A stretch of DNA of 10,708 nt from a virus (lineage: Duplodnaviria; Heunggongvirae; Uroviricota; Caudoviricetes): the IMG/VR virus record IMGVR_UViG_2585427768_000002, positions 1 through 10,708 of that record; one strand, given 5' to 3'. This document shows, piece after piece, positions 1 to 6,254 of the stretch (the first letter of the stretch is position 1; the number at the start of each line of letters is the position of its first letter). The notes beneath the pieces were generated by a model. That model ran no database searches and was not told where the DNA came from. It worked only from the letters and a program-made list of their open reading frames with translations. A program made the position numbers and the translations under genes.

Positions 1-82
1 CTGGCAACATTAACAGGCGTTCCATTGCTGGAATTGCACGTTCCGCCACCTCACGCAGTGCCTGGTAATTAATTTCGCTCAC
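1..82 (-). CDS. hypothetical prophage protein, N-terminal fragment (gene continues beyond window start); paralog of the next gene
   Basis: Reverse complement of 1..82 reads GTG AGC GAA ATT AAT TAC CAG... = MSEINYQALREVAERAIPAMERLLMLP. SD AAGGAGG lies 6 nt upstream of the GTG at 82..80. The GTG overlaps the TGA stop of the upstream gene (GTGA). N-terminus resembles that of the 79..759 gene (MSKIDYQELREAAEQ). Confidence 0.5.
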   Translation of the reverse strand, partial: MSEINYQALREVAERAIPAMERLLMLP

Positions 83-759
83 TGATTGCCTCCTTTGCGA
101 AGCTGGGCAGCAAAGTCAACTAACCACTCAGTCATTTCAACCTTCCCTACCAGGTCTGAACCAGGGTGCATACAGCAATCACTCTGCGCCGCTTTGAAAT
201 CCTTACACTCATATTCTTGGGCCACCAGATTTTTTGCAGCTTCTATAGCAGCATCCACCCCCTGCGCCCGGACTTCAGCCAGGAAAGCATCAGTGGTTGG
301 CGTTTCAGGTATCTGTCTCCTCATCCGTTCTATTGCATGATTGAACCCGAAGTCTTCCGCGAGAGATACGTCATCCATATTGTCATTGTCATCCTCAATA
401 TCCCGTGATTTTGGAATTGCAGACTTTATTCCCGCATTCTCAGCAGCCAGCGCCGCGCACTTGGCCTCAAGAGCGGCAACCACTTCCTGATGGTCTTTGT
501 ACTTAACGTATGAGCCGGAGATGTCATCACCTTCGGTGTTTAGCCATGCGTCATTGCAATTCACTGCGTAGGTTCTGATGCTGATGCTCTCCCGCCCCTG
601 ACAGACGCCAGGCCAGTCAATAAAGTATCCGCAATGCCTACCCTCAGACGTGCGCGCAGGATAAATGCCGTTATGACCCGGCAAAATATATGCTACCCAT
701 TCATCTTGCGTTGCCTGTTCCGCCGCCTCGCGCAGTTCTTGATAGTCAATCTTGCTCAC
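79..759 (-). CDS. hypothetical prophage protein (about 226 aa), coiled-coil-like central region
   Basis: ORF track lists 79..792, but the ATG at 792 has no SD and overlaps the upstream gene. GTG at 759..757 is preceded by AAGGAGG (6 nt spacing) and overlaps the upstream TGA stop as GTGA, so I set the start there. C-terminus ends ...LRKGGNQ. Confidence 0.6.
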   Translation of the reverse strand: MSKIDYQELREAAEQATQDEWVAYILPGHNGIYPARTSEGRHCGYFIDWPGVCQGRESISIRTYAVNCNDAWLNTEGDDISGSYVKYKDHQEVVAALEAKCAALAAENAGIKSAIPKSRDIEDDNDNMDDVSLAEDFGFNHAIERMRRQIPETPTTDAFLAEVRAQGVDAAIEAAKNLVAQEYECKDFKAAQSDCCMHPGSDLVGKVEMTEWLVDFAAQLRKGGNQ

Positions 760-1106
760 TGGTTGCCTCCTTTGCGAATCTGTTCCGCCCATTCTTCTAG
801 GGATTTCTCCGCATATTCACCGGACAGGCCATCAATCGGGTGTGGTTCATTAGCCAACTCTTCTTTCGCTGACAGAATCATGCGTGTAACGTCGAAAACT
901 TCACGTAAAGACTTATTGATAAATCCGTGATTGAAAGCCGCAGCAAGACGGCTTGCGGTATAGTTAATACCCTCGTTGCGAGCCTCAGCACGTACTTCAT
1001 CGAATTTACGCACCAGATACTCAGCATTTGTTTCATTCACTTTCAGATCTCGTGGTACACATTTCCCGCGAAGAAACCCTTCCATTTCGAAAACATTCAT
1101 GCGCAT
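756..1106 (-). CDS. hypothetical prophage protein (116 aa)
   Basis: Complete ORF. SD GGAG (plus-strand CTCC at 1115-1118) sits 8 nt upstream of ATG 1106..1104. C-terminus ...IRKGGNQ matches the C-terminus of the downstream paralog. Its stop overlaps the next gene's GTG start. Confidence 0.6.
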   Translation of the reverse strand: MRMNVFEMEGFLRGKCVPRDLKVNETNAEYLVRKFDEVRAEARNEGINYTASRLAAAFNHGFINKSLREVFDVTRMILSAKEELANEPHPIDGLSGEYAEKSLEEWAEQIRKGGNQ

Positions 1107-1143
1107 TTGCGTAACTCCGATAACTCGTTAAAACGTTCCATAA

Positions 1144-1341
1144 ACATCCCGTAACCGGATCCGCGATCTGGACAACTATAACAAGGCGCTGTTTGACGCC
1201 CTGACCCACGCGGGTGTGTGGGAAGACGACAGTCAGGTGAAAAGAATGCTGGTGGAGTGGGGACCGGTTATCCCGGAGGGGAAGGTCGAGATCACTATCA
1301 GTAAGTACGAAAAAGCGAGTTGCAAATTAGCAACTCGGTAA
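1144..1341 (+). pseudogene. rusA: rusA (Holliday junction resolvase) 3' remnant, N-terminally truncated
   Basis: Frame from 1144 to TAA at 1339-1341 translates TSRNRIRDLDNYNKALFDALTHAGVWEDDSQVKRMLVEWGPVIPEGKVEITISKYEK... This matches the recalled RusA C-terminal catalytic region (RDLDN...DALT.AG.W.DD.QV). No start codon or N-terminal half is present; a stop lies at 1141-1143 and the minus-strand gene 756..1106 occupies the upstream space. Confidence 0.55.
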
Positions 1342-1386
1342 CGGAATTGAGCAACACCCTAAATTTGGGTATTACCTCGTTAAAGA

Positions 1387-1406
1387 TACTGTATTTATGA
1401 ACAGTG
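1387..1406. promoter_or_regulatory. LexA-box-like palindrome (candidate SOS operator) upstream of the KilA-N gene
   Basis: Sequence taCTGTatttatgaACAGtg at 1387-1406 has the CTGT-N8-ACAG architecture with an AT-rich spacer, like the E. coli SOS box consensus TACTGTATATATATACAGTA. A possible -35 TTGATA (1412-1417) and -10 TAAGTT (1435-1440) lie just downstream. Confidence 0.45.
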
Positions 1407-1503
1407 TATCCTTGATAACTATTAAAAATCGCAGTAAGTTCATCCTGCATCAACGAAAAGGGAGTGCAGTCCCGCTCGTGGATAAAAATTTGTGGAGAAA
1501 CCA

Positions 1504-2319
1504 ATGAATCAGTTGCTTGTAATTGATGGCGTTTCTGTGCGCCAGTACTTCGAATCTAACTACTGTCTTAACGACCTTCAGAAAGCTGCTCTTCTTGCCG
1601 CTGGTGAGAATCGCTCCTCCCGTTCGCTGGAAGTTCACGAGTTTATGCGTCGTCCTGAAACGAAGGCTCTTGTGGAATTATTGGAAGAAGAAACTACGGG
1701 AGATTCCCGTAGTATTCCTGTCATCACCATTCAGGGGCGCAATGGTGGGACGTATGTCTGTAAAGAGCTGGTCTATGCATATGCAATGTGGATCAGCCCG
1801 GCATTCAGCTTAAAAGTGATACGTACTTTTGATGCGCTTCATAATTCATCACCAGAAGAAACCACATCCGACAAAATTAAATCCGGGGTCATTCTGCTTG
1901 AATCAGCAGCAAAGACTCTAAATCTGTCAAACTCCTCGAAACTTGGTGCATACCAGAAATTATCAAAGGTAGCTGGTCTTCCTGAACTTATGCCGATCTA
2001 TGCCATTGATGCACCTGCTGATGCGCCAGATGGTTCAAGCCGCCCTACGCTGTCGCTGAGTGCACTGCTGAAGCAGTATGGTATCCGCCTGACGGCTAAT
2101 CAGGCATATCACCAGATGGCGAAGCTGGGGATCGTTGAACAACGCGAACGATACAGCCGTACCGCGATTAACAACATCAAAAAATTCTGGTCGCTGACCG
2201 CGAAAGGCTGCATGTTCGGCAAGAACATCACCAGTCCTGCAAATCCGCGCGAGACGCAGCCGCATTTCTTCGAATCCCGATTTCCTGAGCTGTTAAAGCT
2301 GCTCGATACCGTTCATTGA
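1504..2319 (+). CDS. KilA-N domain protein (phage antirepressor/Roi-like DNA-binding protein)
   Basis: ORF track 1492..2319 begins at a GTG. ATG at 1504 has SD GGAG 7 nt upstream, so I set the start there. N-terminal region GRNGGTYVCKELVYAYAMWISPAFSLKVIRTFD matches the KilA-N core motif (G-T-[WY]-V-x-x-x-L-x-x-x-[YF]-A-x-W-[IL]-S-P-x-F) as recalled. Confidence 0.7.
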   Translation: MNQLLVIDGVSVRQYFESNYCLNDLQKAALLAAGENRSSRSLEVHEFMRRPETKALVELLEEETTGDSRSIPVITIQGRNGGTYVCKELVYAYAMWISPAFSLKVIRTFDALHNSSPEETTSDKIKSGVILLESAAKTLNLSNSSKLGAYQKLSKVAGLPELMPIYAIDAPADAPDGSSRPTLSLSALLKQYGIRLTANQAYHQMAKLGIVEQRERYSRTAINNIKKFWSLTAKGCMFGKNITSPANPRETQPHFFESRFPELLKLLDTVH

Positions 2320-2326
2320 GGTGACT

Positions 2327-3316
2327 GTGAGAGCACTACTGACCCCTGAAATTGCCCCGCGTATGGGGATCGTATTGTTCAGGCCAGGTTCAGAGCTGAT
2401 GCCCCTGTTTATGCAGGGGCGTGTCCTGCTGGAGCCTGAGCCGGAGCGTTATTCATCTTTCGCCAGTGGTGCCGTTCCGGCGGCATCACAACCGCTGGCG
2501 GATGATCCTGCCGTTCGGGCCGTGTTCCGCCATGAGGCAGTGATCCGTCGTGCTGGTGGCGTGGAATGTCTTGAAAGCTGGTTACTTCGTGAAAAAGGCT
2601 GCCAGTGGCCTCATTCCGGATGGCACAGCGAGAACATGACCACAATGCGACACGCTCCGGGTGCAATCCGTCTGTGCTGGCACTGCGATAACCAGCTGCG
2701 CGATCAGTTCACGGAACGGCTGGAATCAATGGCAACGGATAACTGTGCCCGCTGGGTGTTGTCTGTTGTGCGTCGGGATCTCGGTTTTGATGACAGTCAC
2801 GTTGTGACAATGCCGGAACTGTGCTGGTGGCTGATTCGTAATGACCTGGCGGATGCCTTACCGGAAAGTGCAGCCCGTAAGGCACTGAGATTACCGAAGC
2901 CTGTTGTGCCGTCTGTCACCCGGGAAAGTGACCTTGTGCCTTCGGTTCCTGCCACCAGCATCATCCAGGATAAAGCGAAAAAGGTGCTGGCGCTGAAAGT
3001 GGATCCGGAGTCGCCGGAGTCTTTTATGTTACGCCCCAAACGTCGCCGCTGGGTTAATGAAAAGTACACGCGCTGGGTTAAGACGCAGCCGTGTGCATGT
3101 TGTGGAAAGCCTGCTGATGATCCCCACCATCTGATAGGCCACGGTCAGGGGGGAATGGGTACAAAAGCGCATGATCTCTTTGTGTTGCCTTTGTGCAGAA
3201 AGCATCACGACGAGCTGCATGCGGATACCGTGGCATTTGAAGAGAAGTATGGCTCCCAGCTGGAGTTGATATTTCGTTTTATCGATCGTGCGCTGGCAAT
3301 TGGTGTGCTGGCCTGA
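2327..3316 (+). CDS. DUF968-like prophage protein with C-terminal HNH-like His/Cys motif (YdfU-like)
   Basis: ORF track 2321..3316. GTG at 2327 is 5 nt after SD GAGG (2318-2321), so it is the likelier start; 2321 remains possible. C-terminus CACCGKPADDPHHLIGHGQGGMGTKAHDLFVLPLCRKHHDELH is HNH-like. A second Cys/His cluster (CQWPH...CWHCDN) lies mid-protein. Family assignment is from memory of E. coli prophage DUF968 proteins. Confidence 0.65.
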   Translation: MRALLTPEIAPRMGIVLFRPGSELMPLFMQGRVLLEPEPERYSSFASGAVPAASQPLADDPAVRAVFRHEAVIRRAGGVECLESWLLREKGCQWPHSGWHSENMTTMRHAPGAIRLCWHCDNQLRDQFTERLESMATDNCARWVLSVVRRDLGFDDSHVVTMPELCWWLIRNDLADALPESAARKALRLPKPVVPSVTRESDLVPSVPATSIIQDKAKKVLALKVDPESPESFMLRPKRRRWVNEKYTRWVKTQPCACCGKPADDPHHLIGHGQGGMGTKAHDLFVLPLCRKHHDELHADTVAFEEKYGSQLELIFRFIDRALAIGVLA

Positions 3317-3333
3317 TTTTGTGGAGAAAGTTG

Positions 3334-3690
3334 ATGCGTGATATGTATGAAGTAATGGATCGTTGGGGAGCTTGGGCTGCTTCAGACAATAGCGGAGTGG
3401 ACTGGCAGCCGATAGCGGCTGGTTTCAAGGGACTTTTACCTCATGGCAAAAAGTCACGGATTCAGTGTGATGATGACGAAGGCATCATGATAGACAGTTG
3501 TGTGGCTCGGTTGAGAAGGTATAAACCAGAGGAATATGAGCTCATCATCGCCCACTTTGTTATCGGTATCTCATTACGTACTATTGCGAAGAAGAGAAAA
3601 TGCTCTGATGGCACAATTAGGAAGGAACTGCAAACTGCAATGGGGTTTGTTGACGGCTGTTTAGCAATGTTAGCTTATAGTATGGCATAA
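3334..3690 (+). CDS. late-gene antiterminator Q, short QuuD/phage-82-like type
   Basis: ATG at 3334 has SD GGAG 7 nt upstream (track start 3319 is a TTG). Protein MRDMYEVMDRWGAWAASDNSGVDWQPIAAGFKGL... resembles the short (about 120-130 aa) Q antiterminators of DLP12-type prophages as recalled. Position after the nin-region genes and before the tRNA/late region fits. Confidence 0.75.
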   Translation: MRDMYEVMDRWGAWAASDNSGVDWQPIAAGFKGLLPHGKKSRIQCDDDEGIMIDSCVARLRRYKPEEYELIIAHFVIGISLRTIAKKRKCSDGTIRKELQTAMGFVDGCLAMLAYSMA

Positions 3691-4884
3691 AAAATAAAAT
3701 AGATTTACTGCCGATTTTTCAAAAAAGACTGGGAACTGTTTATATCCAACGTAAATAAGGCCTCCATAAAACATGGCTGATGCGAGATATTTAACAGTTC
3801 TCATCCTTTTTTTAGCTTTATCAATCAAACCTGTAATGCTACTCTTAATACTATCTGCATTATCTTTGATTTCTTTATTTTCTTCAAACTTTAAATACTT
3901 ATCGAAAGCGGACTCCACTCGAGAACGTAAGTTGTCGAATGTTTCATTGAATATCTCAATAGAAATGTAATTGACTTTTTTTATCATCCAAAGTCCTGCG
4001 ATAATCAATATTGCTTCGGTTGTTTCATTAGCCTTCACTAAGCCACCAGCAGCTATTAATGCACCGGGAATAGTCAATGCTTTTGTCTGATTAGATGATA
4101 TGAATTCGTTAATTTTACTCGTGAACTCAAGATTTTTCTCATCGAGTTCGTTAAGAATTTTATTTACAGAAAACCTCTTTGTGTAAATCTCATATAGTTC
4201 ATCATATTTTTTCCTGACGAGTTCAGTAGAGTTAAGCAAGTCAAAGAAATTGAACGTACCATTTGCTTTAAATACTTCGTTTATGGCTGAGCGTATAACG
4301 AGCTTGCGCTCGCTTTTGTGTAAATCATTGATTTTTATTGTGTCGAGAAGCTCCTTTATAATTTCATATTTAAGAGACGAGTTCGATAAGCGATTAATCT
4401 CGCTATATTGTAAAAAATGCGTGAGTTCGACTGTATAACTTTTGTCTTCATTGGTGAAAAATAAGACAGAGCAGTCACTGTTATGATGATCAGCAATTAA
4501 TGAAAGGATATCTTTCCACATAAAGAAAATATGGATTTTTTCGATGCTTTCATTCTTAGAAGTAGGGAGTATTAACGGCGTTCCGATGATATAATTTTTC
4601 GGAAGAGCGTTTTGGGTGTTTACTCTAGACCAAAAAGACTCAACATTCTCATAAATTATAGCGTCATCCCAAGATGAAGCTTGGCGATCTAGCCAAATTT
4701 CATTATTTTCGATGCAGGTTGTTGCCTTTTTATAACCTATAGATTGTAACAGTCTAATTATTTCAGAACTATTTACAATAACAATGCTTTCTTCAAGACT
4801 TATGACAGTGTAGTAGCCCTCAACTCTGCTTGAGGCTCCGTTAATAATCTGCGCTAATCTTGATAAGTCATCAGCAATTGTCAT
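3670..4884 (-). CDS. hypothetical membrane-associated protein (404 aa): soluble N-terminal domain plus C-terminal hydrophobic helices; candidate effector of a two-gene module
   Basis: Complete ORF. ATG at 4884..4882 lies 2 nt after the stop of the upstream gene (TAA-TA-ATG), indicating translational coupling. Hydrophobic segments at about aa 268-303 (ALTIPGALIAAGGLV...AILIIAGLWMI) and about aa 365-400 (YLASAMFYGGLIYVGY...). Very AT-rich, with AGA and ATA codons. No family recognised. Confidence 0.75.
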   Translation of the reverse strand: MTIADDLSRLAQIINGASSRVEGYYTVISLEESIVIVNSSEIIRLLQSIGYKKATTCIENNEIWLDRQASSWDDAIIYENVESFWSRVNTQNALPKNYIIGTPLILPTSKNESIEKIHIFFMWKDILSLIADHHNSDCSVLFFTNEDKSYTVELTHFLQYSEINRLSNSSLKYEIIKELLDTIKINDLHKSERKLVIRSAINEVFKANGTFNFFDLLNSTELVRKKYDELYEIYTKRFSVNKILNELDEKNLEFTSKINEFISSNQTKALTIPGALIAAGGLVKANETTEAILIIAGLWMIKKVNYISIEIFNETFDNLRSRVESAFDKYLKFEENKEIKDNADSIKSSITGLIDKAKKRMRTVKYLASAMFYGGLIYVGYKQFPVFFEKSAVNLFYFLCHTIS

Positions 4885-4886
4885 TA

Positions 4887-6062
4887 TTAGCTGTCTCTAT
4901 ATCTTTTGAGTTCATCATAATTTGCCTGACTCAATTTTATCACAATTTCGCATTTGTTGTCAGTGAGAATTACAGGCTTATTTGACTTTTCGTCTCCAAT
5001 AGCTCCACGCATTATTTTCAACTTAAAATTATTGTCGTTATCTGCCACTTCAATTGTAAGCGCGCTTTCAGCTGCTTTAGGAGTTGGTTCAAATTGAGGG
5101 TCAATCTGGAAACCATTAAGATTAACAAAATCGACAAACGTTCCCTTACATTTGTGTGAATCAGTCAGGCATGAGTCAATTATTTTTGAAATATCCTCTA
5201 TCTTAACGGACTTATTTCCGTGTTTATCTTTTGATTTTTTTTCCAGTAAGGATTTAACTTCATTGTCAATAGTATCACGCAGTACACGACCGAGTGAGTT
5301 TTTACTAGCAAAAATATCTATAGCACTGAATAATTGCTGAATGCTTCTTTTATTGTCCGAATCATGTCGGCAACCTAATGAGTCTTTGAAAAAATCGCTT
5401 TTAGATTTACCTTGCAAGAAATGTACATATGAGTCACCCTTGTTTTCTGGATAACTGGCTTCGAATAAAGTTAAATCGAACATCGCAGCCTGCCGTAAGG
5501 CATCGGTATTAATTGGATTTAATCTTGTTGGGGTCAACTTATCCGAATCAAAGTCATAGGCGCTTTGTTTATCAACCATTACGATTAGAAGTTTCCCCAA
5601 ATCCTCTGGTTCGGTAGACTTATAGTGGATGAAAACAACGCTCCCCCCCTGAAGTTGGGCAACTCTCGATTCGTTATTAGCATTATGTTTAAGCTTCTCT
5701 ATTATAGCTCTAGATAAATCAATGAATTCATTATTTTTATTAATGTATTTTTTTAGGATCGTAGGAATGGATGAAGGGTTGTGATCTGAGTCTAGGAAGT
5801 TATGAAATTTGTTTTTTCGGCTAAATTTTTTCTCAATTCTGGTTATGAATTCAGATGTGACTTCATTTTTTAGATCCCAAACTTCACCTAATCGATAATC
5901 AAATGCTCTTGAATCATTTTTTTCAAGATTTGCTGTTACAGCACCAATAGGAAAGTACGATTGTTTGCCCAGCACTACAACATGAGGCGTGGCACCGCAT
6001 TTATCGCAAGCTACAGTTGGGTCGTCAAGAACATTGCCACATTCTAAACAAGTTATATCCAT
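4887..6062 (-). CDS. zinc-ribbon protein with NdpA/YejK-like (NA37 family) nucleoid-associated domain (391 aa)
   Basis: Complete ORF. ATG at 6062..6060 with SD GGGA about 7 nt upstream. N-terminal C5-x2-C8-x10-C19-x2-C22 zinc ribbon. Residues 139-147 GGSVVFIHY, 212-220 YVHFLQGKS and SDFFKDSLG align with recalled YejK motifs ([31 protein letters not shown]). AT-rich. Confidence 0.8.
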   Translation of the reverse strand: MDITCLECGNVLDDPTVACDKCGATPHVVVLGKQSYFPIGAVTANLEKNDSRAFDYRLGEVWDLKNEVTSEFITRIEKKFSRKNKFHNFLDSDHNPSSIPTILKKYINKNNEFIDLSRAIIEKLKHNANNESRVAQLQGGSVVFIHYKSTEPEDLGKLLIVMVDKQSAYDFDSDKLTPTRLNPINTDALRQAAMFDLTLFEASYPENKGDSYVHFLQGKSKSDFFKDSLGCRHDSDNKRSIQQLFSAIDIFASKNSLGRVLRDTIDNEVKSLLEKKSKDKHGNKSVKIEDISKIIDSCLTDSHKCKGTFVDFVNLNGFQIDPQFEPTPKAAESALTIEVADNDNNFKLKIMRGAIGDEKSNKPVILTDNKCEIVIKLSQANYDELKRYRDS

Positions 6063-6087
6063 TATATATCCCGAATTATAAGAATGA

Positions 6088-6115
6088 ATTTTTATGTGGC
6101 TGAAAATTCTATCAA
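6088..6115 (-). promoter_or_regulatory. candidate sigma70 promoter for the minus-strand two-gene operon
   Basis: On the minus strand: TTGATA (plus coords 6115..6110), 16-nt spacer, AAAAAT (6093..6088). A TATAAT hexamer (6080..6075) lies directly before the SD. Hexamers identified by eye only. Confidence 0.25.
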
Positions 6116-6182
6116 AACACTAACGCGTACGCAAAAAGTATTGTATTGTGTTAAGAGTGGTTACTTCGCCACACAACTTAAC

Positions 6183-6204
6183 CCCGCCACTGAGCGGGTT
6201 TTTT
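6183..6204 (+). terminator. intrinsic terminator-like hairpin (plus strand)
   Basis: Stem CCCGC (6183-6187) / GCGGG (6194-6198), 6-nt loop, followed by TTTTTT (6199-6204). No plus-strand gene lies immediately upstream. Confidence 0.5.
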
Positions 6205-6254
6205 GTACCTGTAAACTTGGTGCAGTACAGTAAACACGCTGGTGGTCGTGAATA

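Follow-up and report, generated by a model that had tools for sequence, protein, structure and literature searches.

A LexA-type palindrome ahead of the kilA-N–DUF968–Q operon of a deleted lambda-like prophage: a candidate SOS operator on an internal promoter

Introduction

How might a DNA-damage signal reach the late genes of a lambda-like prophage that has lost its own repressor? The question is raised by a 20-bp palindrome at positions 1387-1406 of a 10,708-nucleotide stretch of tailed-phage DNA (positions 1 to 10,708 of IMG/VR record IMGVR_UViG_2585427768_000002; the whole of this stretch is called the window below), which lies ahead of genes encoding a KilA-N domain protein, a DUF968/HNH-like protein and the late-gene antiterminator Q. 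A preliminary description of the window, made from the letters alone, had seen in the palindrome a LexA box about 100 bp upstream of the KilA-N gene, beside promoter-like hexamers, and had proposed that SOS control of an antirepressor-like gene would induce the prophage independently of repressor autocleavage. On all available measures the palindrome is not a chance occurrence. We consider it, with a probability of roughly 0.55, to be a LexA-type operator acting on an internal sigma-70 promoter of the kilA-N–DUF968–Q operon, because of its motif score, its non-coding site by a promoter-like pair and the recurrence of such boxes in unrelated spacers of other genera.

Results

The palindrome scores within the range of known LexA boxes

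Positions 1387-1406 read exactly tactgtatttatgaacagtg, in agreement with the coordinates and letters of the preliminary description. The box is identical to the LexA consensus TACTGTATATATATACAGTA at 16 of 20 positions, the very number that had been estimated; both half-sites, CTGT and ACAG, are perfect, and the left arm TACTGTAT matches the consensus throughout. An exact CTGT-N8-ACAG occurs once in the 10.7-kb window, at this place, while with one mismatch allowed there are 6 sites against 3.2 expected, so that the exact site alone stands out. The TGT...ACA core was also considered as a CRP site and dismissed by eye; its half-sites fit TGTGA/TCACA poorly.

The heterology index (HI), the score that the preliminary description had named, was computed as a Lewis-type index, the sum of ln[(n_consensus+0.5)/(n_observed+0.5)], over a matrix of the 18 E. 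coli LexA boxes listed in Table 4 of PMC3009722. The box scores 7.82 in the forward and 5.59 in the reverse orientation, values which, the matrix being self-built and not the original Lewis matrix, are not comparable in absolute terms with published indices. Scored by leave-one-out, the 18 known boxes range from 0.6 to 12.8 with a median near 7.6, and the box falls inside this range. Exact convolution with the base composition of the window gives 0.01 expected sites per window at HI <=7.8 and 0.001 at HI <=5.6; none of 2000 dinucleotide shuffles of the spacer matched the HI of the box, which is the top LexA-like site of the window.

The box abuts a predicted promoter in a non-coding spacer

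The box is located in a 162-bp non-coding spacer that leads from a truncated rusA to the kilA-N–DUF968/HNH–Q operon (Table 1), and 97 nt separate its end from the kilA-N ATG at 1504, close to the distance first given. The hexamers that had been noticed beside it form the pair TTGATA-17-TAAGTT, which with a simple position weight matrix (PWM) scores 11.4, the best value for any pair in 1300-1520 on either strand; a score of >=10 is reached at only 22 sites in the whole window, both strands included. The end of the box is 5 bp from the predicted -35, and the box spans about -60 to -41 with its centre at about -50.5. On the minus strand of 1300-1520 the same matrix found no well-scoring promoter. 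The weak alternative pair TTGGGT-16-TACTGT would set the box at the classical place, over both -10 and +1.

LexA-type boxes recur in unrelated spacers

Of 5426 complete E. coli genomes, 186 carry the spacer, those of the O104:H4 outbreak lineage among them, and it also occurs in Shigella phage SfIV, Escherichia phage PhiR49_1 and about 100 IMG/VR contigs. Throughout the 186 genomes and about 100 contigs the box is invariant except for G20->A (SfIV and strain AZ187), and this sole change goes towards the consensus, giving HI values of 5.70 and 4.49. The exact 19-mer occurs 105 times in IMG/VR, 100 times in the same spacer and five times in unrelated contexts.

A wider comparison covered 80 genome loci and about 240 viral loci with KilA-N homologues of 40-85% identity (individual loci are cited by L numbers). 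The rusA/kilA-N junction takes two forms, either 16-19 nt without a box or a spacer of 70-162 nt. The long spacers make up about five or six sequence families, non-alignable beyond a leader hairpin, and 7 of the 14 that were scanned hold a promoter-like pair with the -10 ending 53-66 nt before the ATG. Among 23 distinct long spacers, not all of which are independent, an HI of <=8 is reached in three, <=10 in seven and <=12.3 in 11, against dinucleotide-shuffle expectations for the 23 of 0.003, 0.01 and 0.12. Conservation in homologous prophages, which the preliminary description had put forward as a check, is thus found in several unrelated families of long spacers and is absent at the 16-19-nt junctions.

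The best of these boxes is that of the Edwardsiella spacer (GGCTGTTTTAATATCCAGTA, HI 5.7), followed by that of Erwinia (GATTGTATATTTATACAGTC, HI 7.7, with a relative at 9.1). Boxes of HI 8.6-11.3 are found in L298 (8.6), L401 and L308, and of HI 9.7-12.2 in the Serratia-like spacers of L314 (9.7), L017 and L307. The box of L322 (AACTGTTCAAACATACAGGT, HI 9.9) is placed just 5' of the -35, like that of the window, whereas in most other box-bearing spacers the box lies over the predicted -10, the classical repressor position. In L129 and L352, where the kilA-N product is 74% identical and the homologous spacer has diverged by roughly 50%, the right half of the box, ATGAACAGTG, is intact amid the divergence. 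In our reading of these alignments, an autonomous promoter before kilA-N is probably an optional trait of the phage family that has repeatedly been put under a LexA-type operator, and the sequence and position of that operator appear to have turned over between lineages.

The window is a deletion derivative of an O104:H4-type prophage

The window represents the nin/late-regulatory part of a lambda-like prophage, and positions 1152-10539 are 100% identical to a prophage of O104:H4-type strains. In an intact copy (L007, NZ_CM167690.1) the order runs from a CI-type repressor through cro, ymfL, Rha, replication genes, PerC and Dam to a 108-aa 'LexA family protein', rusA, the 162-bp spacer, kilA-N, DUF968 and Q. 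Positions 998-1153 of the window equal L007 835-990 (leftward early operon, end of yfdR), and positions 1152-1600 equal L007 9001-9449, starting inside rusA (8795-9190). Judged by this comparison, the window is an ~8-kb deletion derivative of the O104:H4-type prophage, the deleted part comprising the repressor, cro, the replication genes, dam, the LexA-like gene and the first half of rusA. The deletion junction was absent from the 5426 complete E. coli genomes, the phage collection and the IMG/VR loci examined. The repressor of L007 combines a helix-turn-helix (HTH) with a Peptidase_S24 domain, an Ala-Gly site (SASAGNG) and the GDSM and KRL motifs, and by these features is of the lambda CI design, which is inactivated via RecA-stimulated self-cleavage.

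The 108-aa protein, encoded two genes 5' of the box in intact relatives, has a full LexA DNA-binding domain (PF01726, E 2.9e-19; TIGR00498 positions 1-91) and no S24 domain. It is 43% identical to residues 1-86 of E. coli LexA and keeps both the recognition helix RSxNAAxEHL, with residues S39, N41, A42, E45 and H46, and the wing RGI; these five residues and the wing we take to be base-contacting in the LexA-DNA structure 3JSO. The gene is found at 8472-8798 of L007, 5472-5798 of L001, 794-1120 of L002 and L003 and 972-1298 of L004-L006; in L029 (1241-1435) it is 3' of kilA-N. Prophages of the SfII/SfIV/Stx type commonly carry it in the nin region, and its product is a candidate SOS-regulon modulator; the literature search found no functional study of the protein.

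Further LexA-type sites were observed around the loci compared. In the fetched prophage regions (481 kb) there are nine sites of HI <=8 against about 0.45 expected. L007 has at 4017-4036, outside the window, a second and stronger box, TACTGTTTTTACATACAGTA (HI 2.1/4.8 with our matrix), within a 24-bp palindrome; it is inside the coding sequence of the CI-type repressor, in the part for the HTH–S24 linker, and could mark an internal or antisense promoter or a roadblock. Other strong boxes (HI 1.4-5.3) are those of L010 (6156-6175), L018 (5951-5970), L066 (1594-1613), L084 (4824-4843) and L037 (5460-5479), and the box TACTGTAAAAATAAACAGTG is common to Kluyvera and Rosenbergiella loci, about 3 kb 3' of kilA-N. 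Within the window, an AraC-family gene (6661-7374) contains at 7038-7057 the less strong LexA-like site AAGTGGATGTTTATCCAGCA, with an HI of 9.6-10.0 in either orientation; this site is also present in L007.

Neighbouring features

The three genes of the operon follow each other closely, with 1 nt between the kilA-N stop and DUF968 and 2 nt between the DUF968 stop and Q, and a terminator search on the plus strand of 1504-3690 yielded none that was convincing.

Table 1 Features of the box, its spacer and the operon (positions in the window)
Feature	Position	Strand	Basis or remark
Terminator-like hairpin and T-run, working for leftward transcription only	1316..1337	-	terminator scan
rusA 3' remnant, stop codon 1339-1341	1150..1341	+	comparison with L007; deletion junction about 1150-1153
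Weak alternative promoter, TTGGGT-16-TACTGT	1365..1392	+	PWM 6.5; -10 is the left arm of the box
LexA-type SOS box, TACTGTATTTATGAACAGTG	1387..1406	.	direct reading and own HI
Predicted sigma-70 promoter of the kilA-N operon: -35 TTGATA 1412-1417, 17 nt, -10 TAAGTT 1435-1440, start near 1447	1412..1440	+	simple PWM
Leader hairpin, GGGA[GTGCAG]TCCC	1460..1473	+	5' of the ribosome-binding site GGAG 1494-1497
KilA-N domain protein, 271 aa	1504..2319	+	Pfam PF04383, E 1.3e-15, residues 10-114; PHROG 129 'transcriptional regulator'
DUF968/HNH-like protein, 331 aa	2321..3316	+	PF06147, E 1.9e-81, HNHc_6; PHROG 96 'HNH endonuclease'
Late-gene antiterminator Q, 123 aa	3319..3690	+	PF06530, E 3.2e-47

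Nearly all relatives have a counterpart of the leader hairpin, placed 20-45 nt 5' of the kilA-N ATG and with the loop (G/T)TGCAG; it was seen at the equivalent place in L004, L009, L013, L017, L032, L035, L038, L129, L130, L142, L147 and others. Its stems are lineage-specific yet still pair (GGGA/TCCC, GGCGG/CCGCC, TCGG/CCGA, GTTACGGTC/GACCGTAAC); in Proteus and Morganella the stems are CGTGAT/GTCACG and GCGCAGT/GCTGCGC, with the loops GTACG or ATACG. The hairpin is kept even at the 19-nt junctions, where it lies within the 3' end of rusA, and it is not followed by a U-tract. An Rfam search of 1250-1560 returned two chance-level matches only and no family for the hairpin, and RNAalifold predicted zero pairs on 20 leaders because the loop register varies between lineages; the hairpins were listed per sequence instead. 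It may be a leader element of the RNA (or DNA) that had gone unrecognised. The leftward terminator-like hairpin overlaps the last rusA codons and is part of the E. coli/Shigella-specific 5' section of the spacer that also holds the box. A minus-strand open reading frame across the spacer (1298-1504, 68 aa, TTG start) was rejected as a gene: a common variant of the spacer with an 11-bp deletion would frameshift it.

Between Q and the late region a two-gene anti-phage module occupies 3670-4884 and 4887-6062, both on the minus strand (NCBIfam DS1_2_antiphage, E 2.8e-112, and DS1_1 nucleoid-associated anti-phage protein, E 2.1e-135, Pfam NA37); the module is transcribed towards Q and shares 21 nt with the 3' end of that gene. 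Three tRNA genes follow in 7403-7652, one with a CAT anticodon (Met by ARAGORN, Ile by RefSeq), Arg-TCG and Arg-TCT, and after them a DUF1737/SASA/DUF6645 esterase gene at 8141-10102. This layout of tRNAs and then an esterase is that of the late region of Shiga-toxin phages, without the stx genes.

Discussion

We propose that in undamaged cells host LexA, bound at about -60 to -41 and touching the -35, would keep the internal promoter down, and that upon DNA damage the RecA-stimulated cleavage of LexA would free it, so that KilA-N, DUF968 and Q would be transcribed independently of the phage early promoter PR. The steps that we infer here are the binding of LexA, the activity of the promoter, its repression from -41/-60 and co-transcription through Q. 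In intact relatives the box would serve as a second SOS input beside the self-cleavage of CI. In the window it would be the sole recognisable control before Q, and hence before the late region, because the immunity and replication regions are deleted. Since a LexA-gated transcript would run into Q, SOS would feed straight into late-gene antitermination. If this is true, Q and the late region (which carries stx in Shiga-toxin phages and here tRNAs, a NanS-p-type esterase and lysis genes) would get a DNA-damage signal that bypasses the CI/PR/N cascade, which would bear on the response of defective prophages to SOS-triggering antibiotics and on the timing of late expression in prophages of the SfIV/O104:H4 family.

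Several observations weigh against a LexA operator at this place. The promoter is a prediction whose -10, TAAGTT, agrees with the consensus at three of six positions, and because of this a stricter promoter scan of 1150-1650 returned no promoter. Strongly LexA-dependent genes usually have the box over the -10 or +1 (PMC8072944), whereas here it is upstream of the predicted -35. Within the E. coli lineage the spacer is 90-100% identical, and where the whole spacer is near-identical the invariance of the box is uninformative. Many relatives (SfII, Stx2a_1447, mEp460, Proteus) have neither spacer nor box, and the long spacers of Kluyvera and Raoultella have the promoter pair without a box, which implies that LexA control would be optional for the kilA-N operon. 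The left half of the L129/L352 box has drifted to TGGTGGATAA, with an HI of 11.2. The self-built matrix and the partial dependence among the 23 spacers count on the same side, and a literature search (LexA with KilA-N, Q, lambdoid prophages and PhiR49) found no study of the site.

As to what the operator would control, the SOS-box half of the preliminary proposal gains from the score, location and recurrence of the box, while its other half, an antirepressor that induces the prophage independently of the repressor's cleavage, is not supported. An antirepressor action of KilA-N, by which it would bind and disable the repressor after damage and so induce the prophage in the absence of cleavage, as 186 Tum, N15 AntC and Gifsy GfoA/GftA do, is in our view very unlikely. 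The ANT/KilAC domain underlies most 'antirepressor' annotations. The 271-aa protein has a KilA-N domain only, with no ANT/KilAC (PF03374), Tum, DinI or other antirepressor signature, no match in NCBIfam, and a carboxypeptidase (E 0.12) as its sole sequence match in the PDB; the label of its PHROG is that of a transcriptional regulator, and the small antirepressors of Gifsy are much shorter proteins. The repressor of the intact relatives is of the cleavable CI type (S24, Ala-Gly, Ser/Lys motifs), so that an antirepressor would not be needed, and the window, its immunity region lost, has no repressor in cis to antagonise; most family members, moreover, are co-transcribed with rusA and have no box. 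The box does adjoin a predicted promoter, lambda-like prophages of Salmonella do have antirepressor operons under LexA control away from the immunity region (PMC3121763), and KilA-N could possibly act in trans on a co-resident prophage; nevertheless two defining features of such a system, a recognisable antirepressor and a non-cleavable repressor, appear from the sequences to be missing. That the operon ends in Q suggests a different consequence of SOS control. It is possible, if doubtful, that the box is instead, or also, the target of the uncleavable 108-aa protein, which would activate from beside the -35 as gp6 of phage GIL01 does or re-repress late in infection. Its gene occurs together with the box in SfIV, the O104:H4 type, 2013C-3342 and AZ187; the recognition helix and wing of its LexA domain are kept; gp6, a truncated LexA homologue, activates a late promoter (PMC6182141); and a site abutting the -35 is odd for a repressor and normal for an activator. 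Yet the gene is deleted from the window, is as common in box-less relatives (SfII, Stx2a_1447, mEp460), showing no association with the box, and did not turn up in the fetched flanks of the Erwinia and Serratia boxes; the centre lies at about -50.5, not at -41.5 or -43.5, where a class II site would overlap the -35 at about -42, and the boxes of other genera overlap the -10, where a repressor would bind.

LexA may also bind without regulatory effect, the box being a relic or a passenger of the E. coli-specific 5' part of the spacer, which we regard as unlikely. It does lie in a lineage-specific 5' extension (1342-1411), outside the core shared with other spacers and beyond the core promoter, the operon of many relatives works without it, and the homologous L129/L352 site is half-decayed; a site this good is, however, expected at most 0.01 times per window, the recurrence of boxes in unrelated spacers (7 of 23 against 0.01 expected) is hard to explain without selection, and the only polymorphism of the box moves towards the consensus. 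That the box controls a short leftward RNA, begun within or close to it and terminated on the minus strand at 1337-1316, seems extremely improbable. The leftward-only hairpin with its T-run and a weak minus-strand pair, TTATCA-19-TACAGT, with its -10 in the right arm of the box, would provide for it, but that pair scores poorly (6.3, with a 19-nt spacer), two terminator-like matches per 500 bp against 0.6 expected are not significant, the arrangement is missing from the other box-bearing spacers, and there is no Rfam match. Host LexA as a repressor of the internal promoter is the reading that we retain. It can be extended, tentatively and with rather little likelihood, to a LexA circuit run by the phage: host LexA would silence the kilA-N–DUF968–Q promoter so that damage turns on Q even in a remnant that lacks repressor and replication genes, and in intact phages the uncleavable phage LexA domain would then take over the same boxes, including the stronger one in the O104:H4-type cI, activating or re-silencing them.

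The site itself is, as far as our literature search shows, previously unpublished, while LexA-controlled prophage operons are already known. With the chromosomal SOS boxes of E. coli (recA, dinB, dinG) the box of the window shares the 20-bp architecture and a mid-range HI, and those of dinG and recN resemble the spacer boxes of the relatives with one imperfect half; unlike the chromosomal boxes, which lie over the -10 or the start site, it is 5 bp 5' of the predicted -35. In GIL01 a truncated LexA homologue, gp6, 44% identical to host LexA, activates a late promoter from a palindrome at -43.5, and host LexA represses the same promoter (PMC6182141). As at the P3 promoter of GIL01, intact members of the phage family here have a gene for a LexA DNA-binding domain that lacks the cleavage part (identity to host LexA about 43-44% in the two cases), and a palindrome is found by the -35 of a promoter, here a predicted one, leading to late genes. 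GIL01 is, however, a Gram-positive tectivirus without a dedicated repressor and not a lambda-like prophage; its gp6 site (GaCACAC GTGTGaC, centre -43.5) is no LexA box, whereas here a canonical E. coli SOS box is centred near -50; and GIL01 encodes gp6, whereas the window has lost its 108-aa gene.

The coupling of DNA damage to phage genes by a host LexA operator on a phage promoter is shared with 186 Tum and N15 AntC, which are proven antirepressors, whereas the KilA-N protein shows no detectable similarity to them or to ANT/KilAC. The closest known system appears to be the LexA-controlled internal operon of the Gifsy prophages of Salmonella, in which a LexA box and promoter 1.3 kb 3' of the replication genes drive an internal operon, and the repressors, dependent on LexA-controlled antirepressors, are not cleaved (PMC3121763). 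Gifsy-1, -2 and -3 (dinI–gfoA/gftA–irsA) and the phages studied here are all lambda-like, with a LexA box (here a candidate) and an own promoter (here a predicted one) in the rightward early region past the replication genes; in both the box is outside the immunity region, and SOS reaches (here, would reach) phage genes bypassing the main repressor. A terminator precedes the Gifsy box, whereas no rightward terminator is found before the box of the window, and the Gifsy control was shown genetically where ours is a prediction. The two differ further in payload and repressor: DinI and a small antirepressor beside an uncleaved repressor in Gifsy, and KilA-N, DUF968/HNH and Q here, in a family whose intact members have a cleavable repressor of the CI type.

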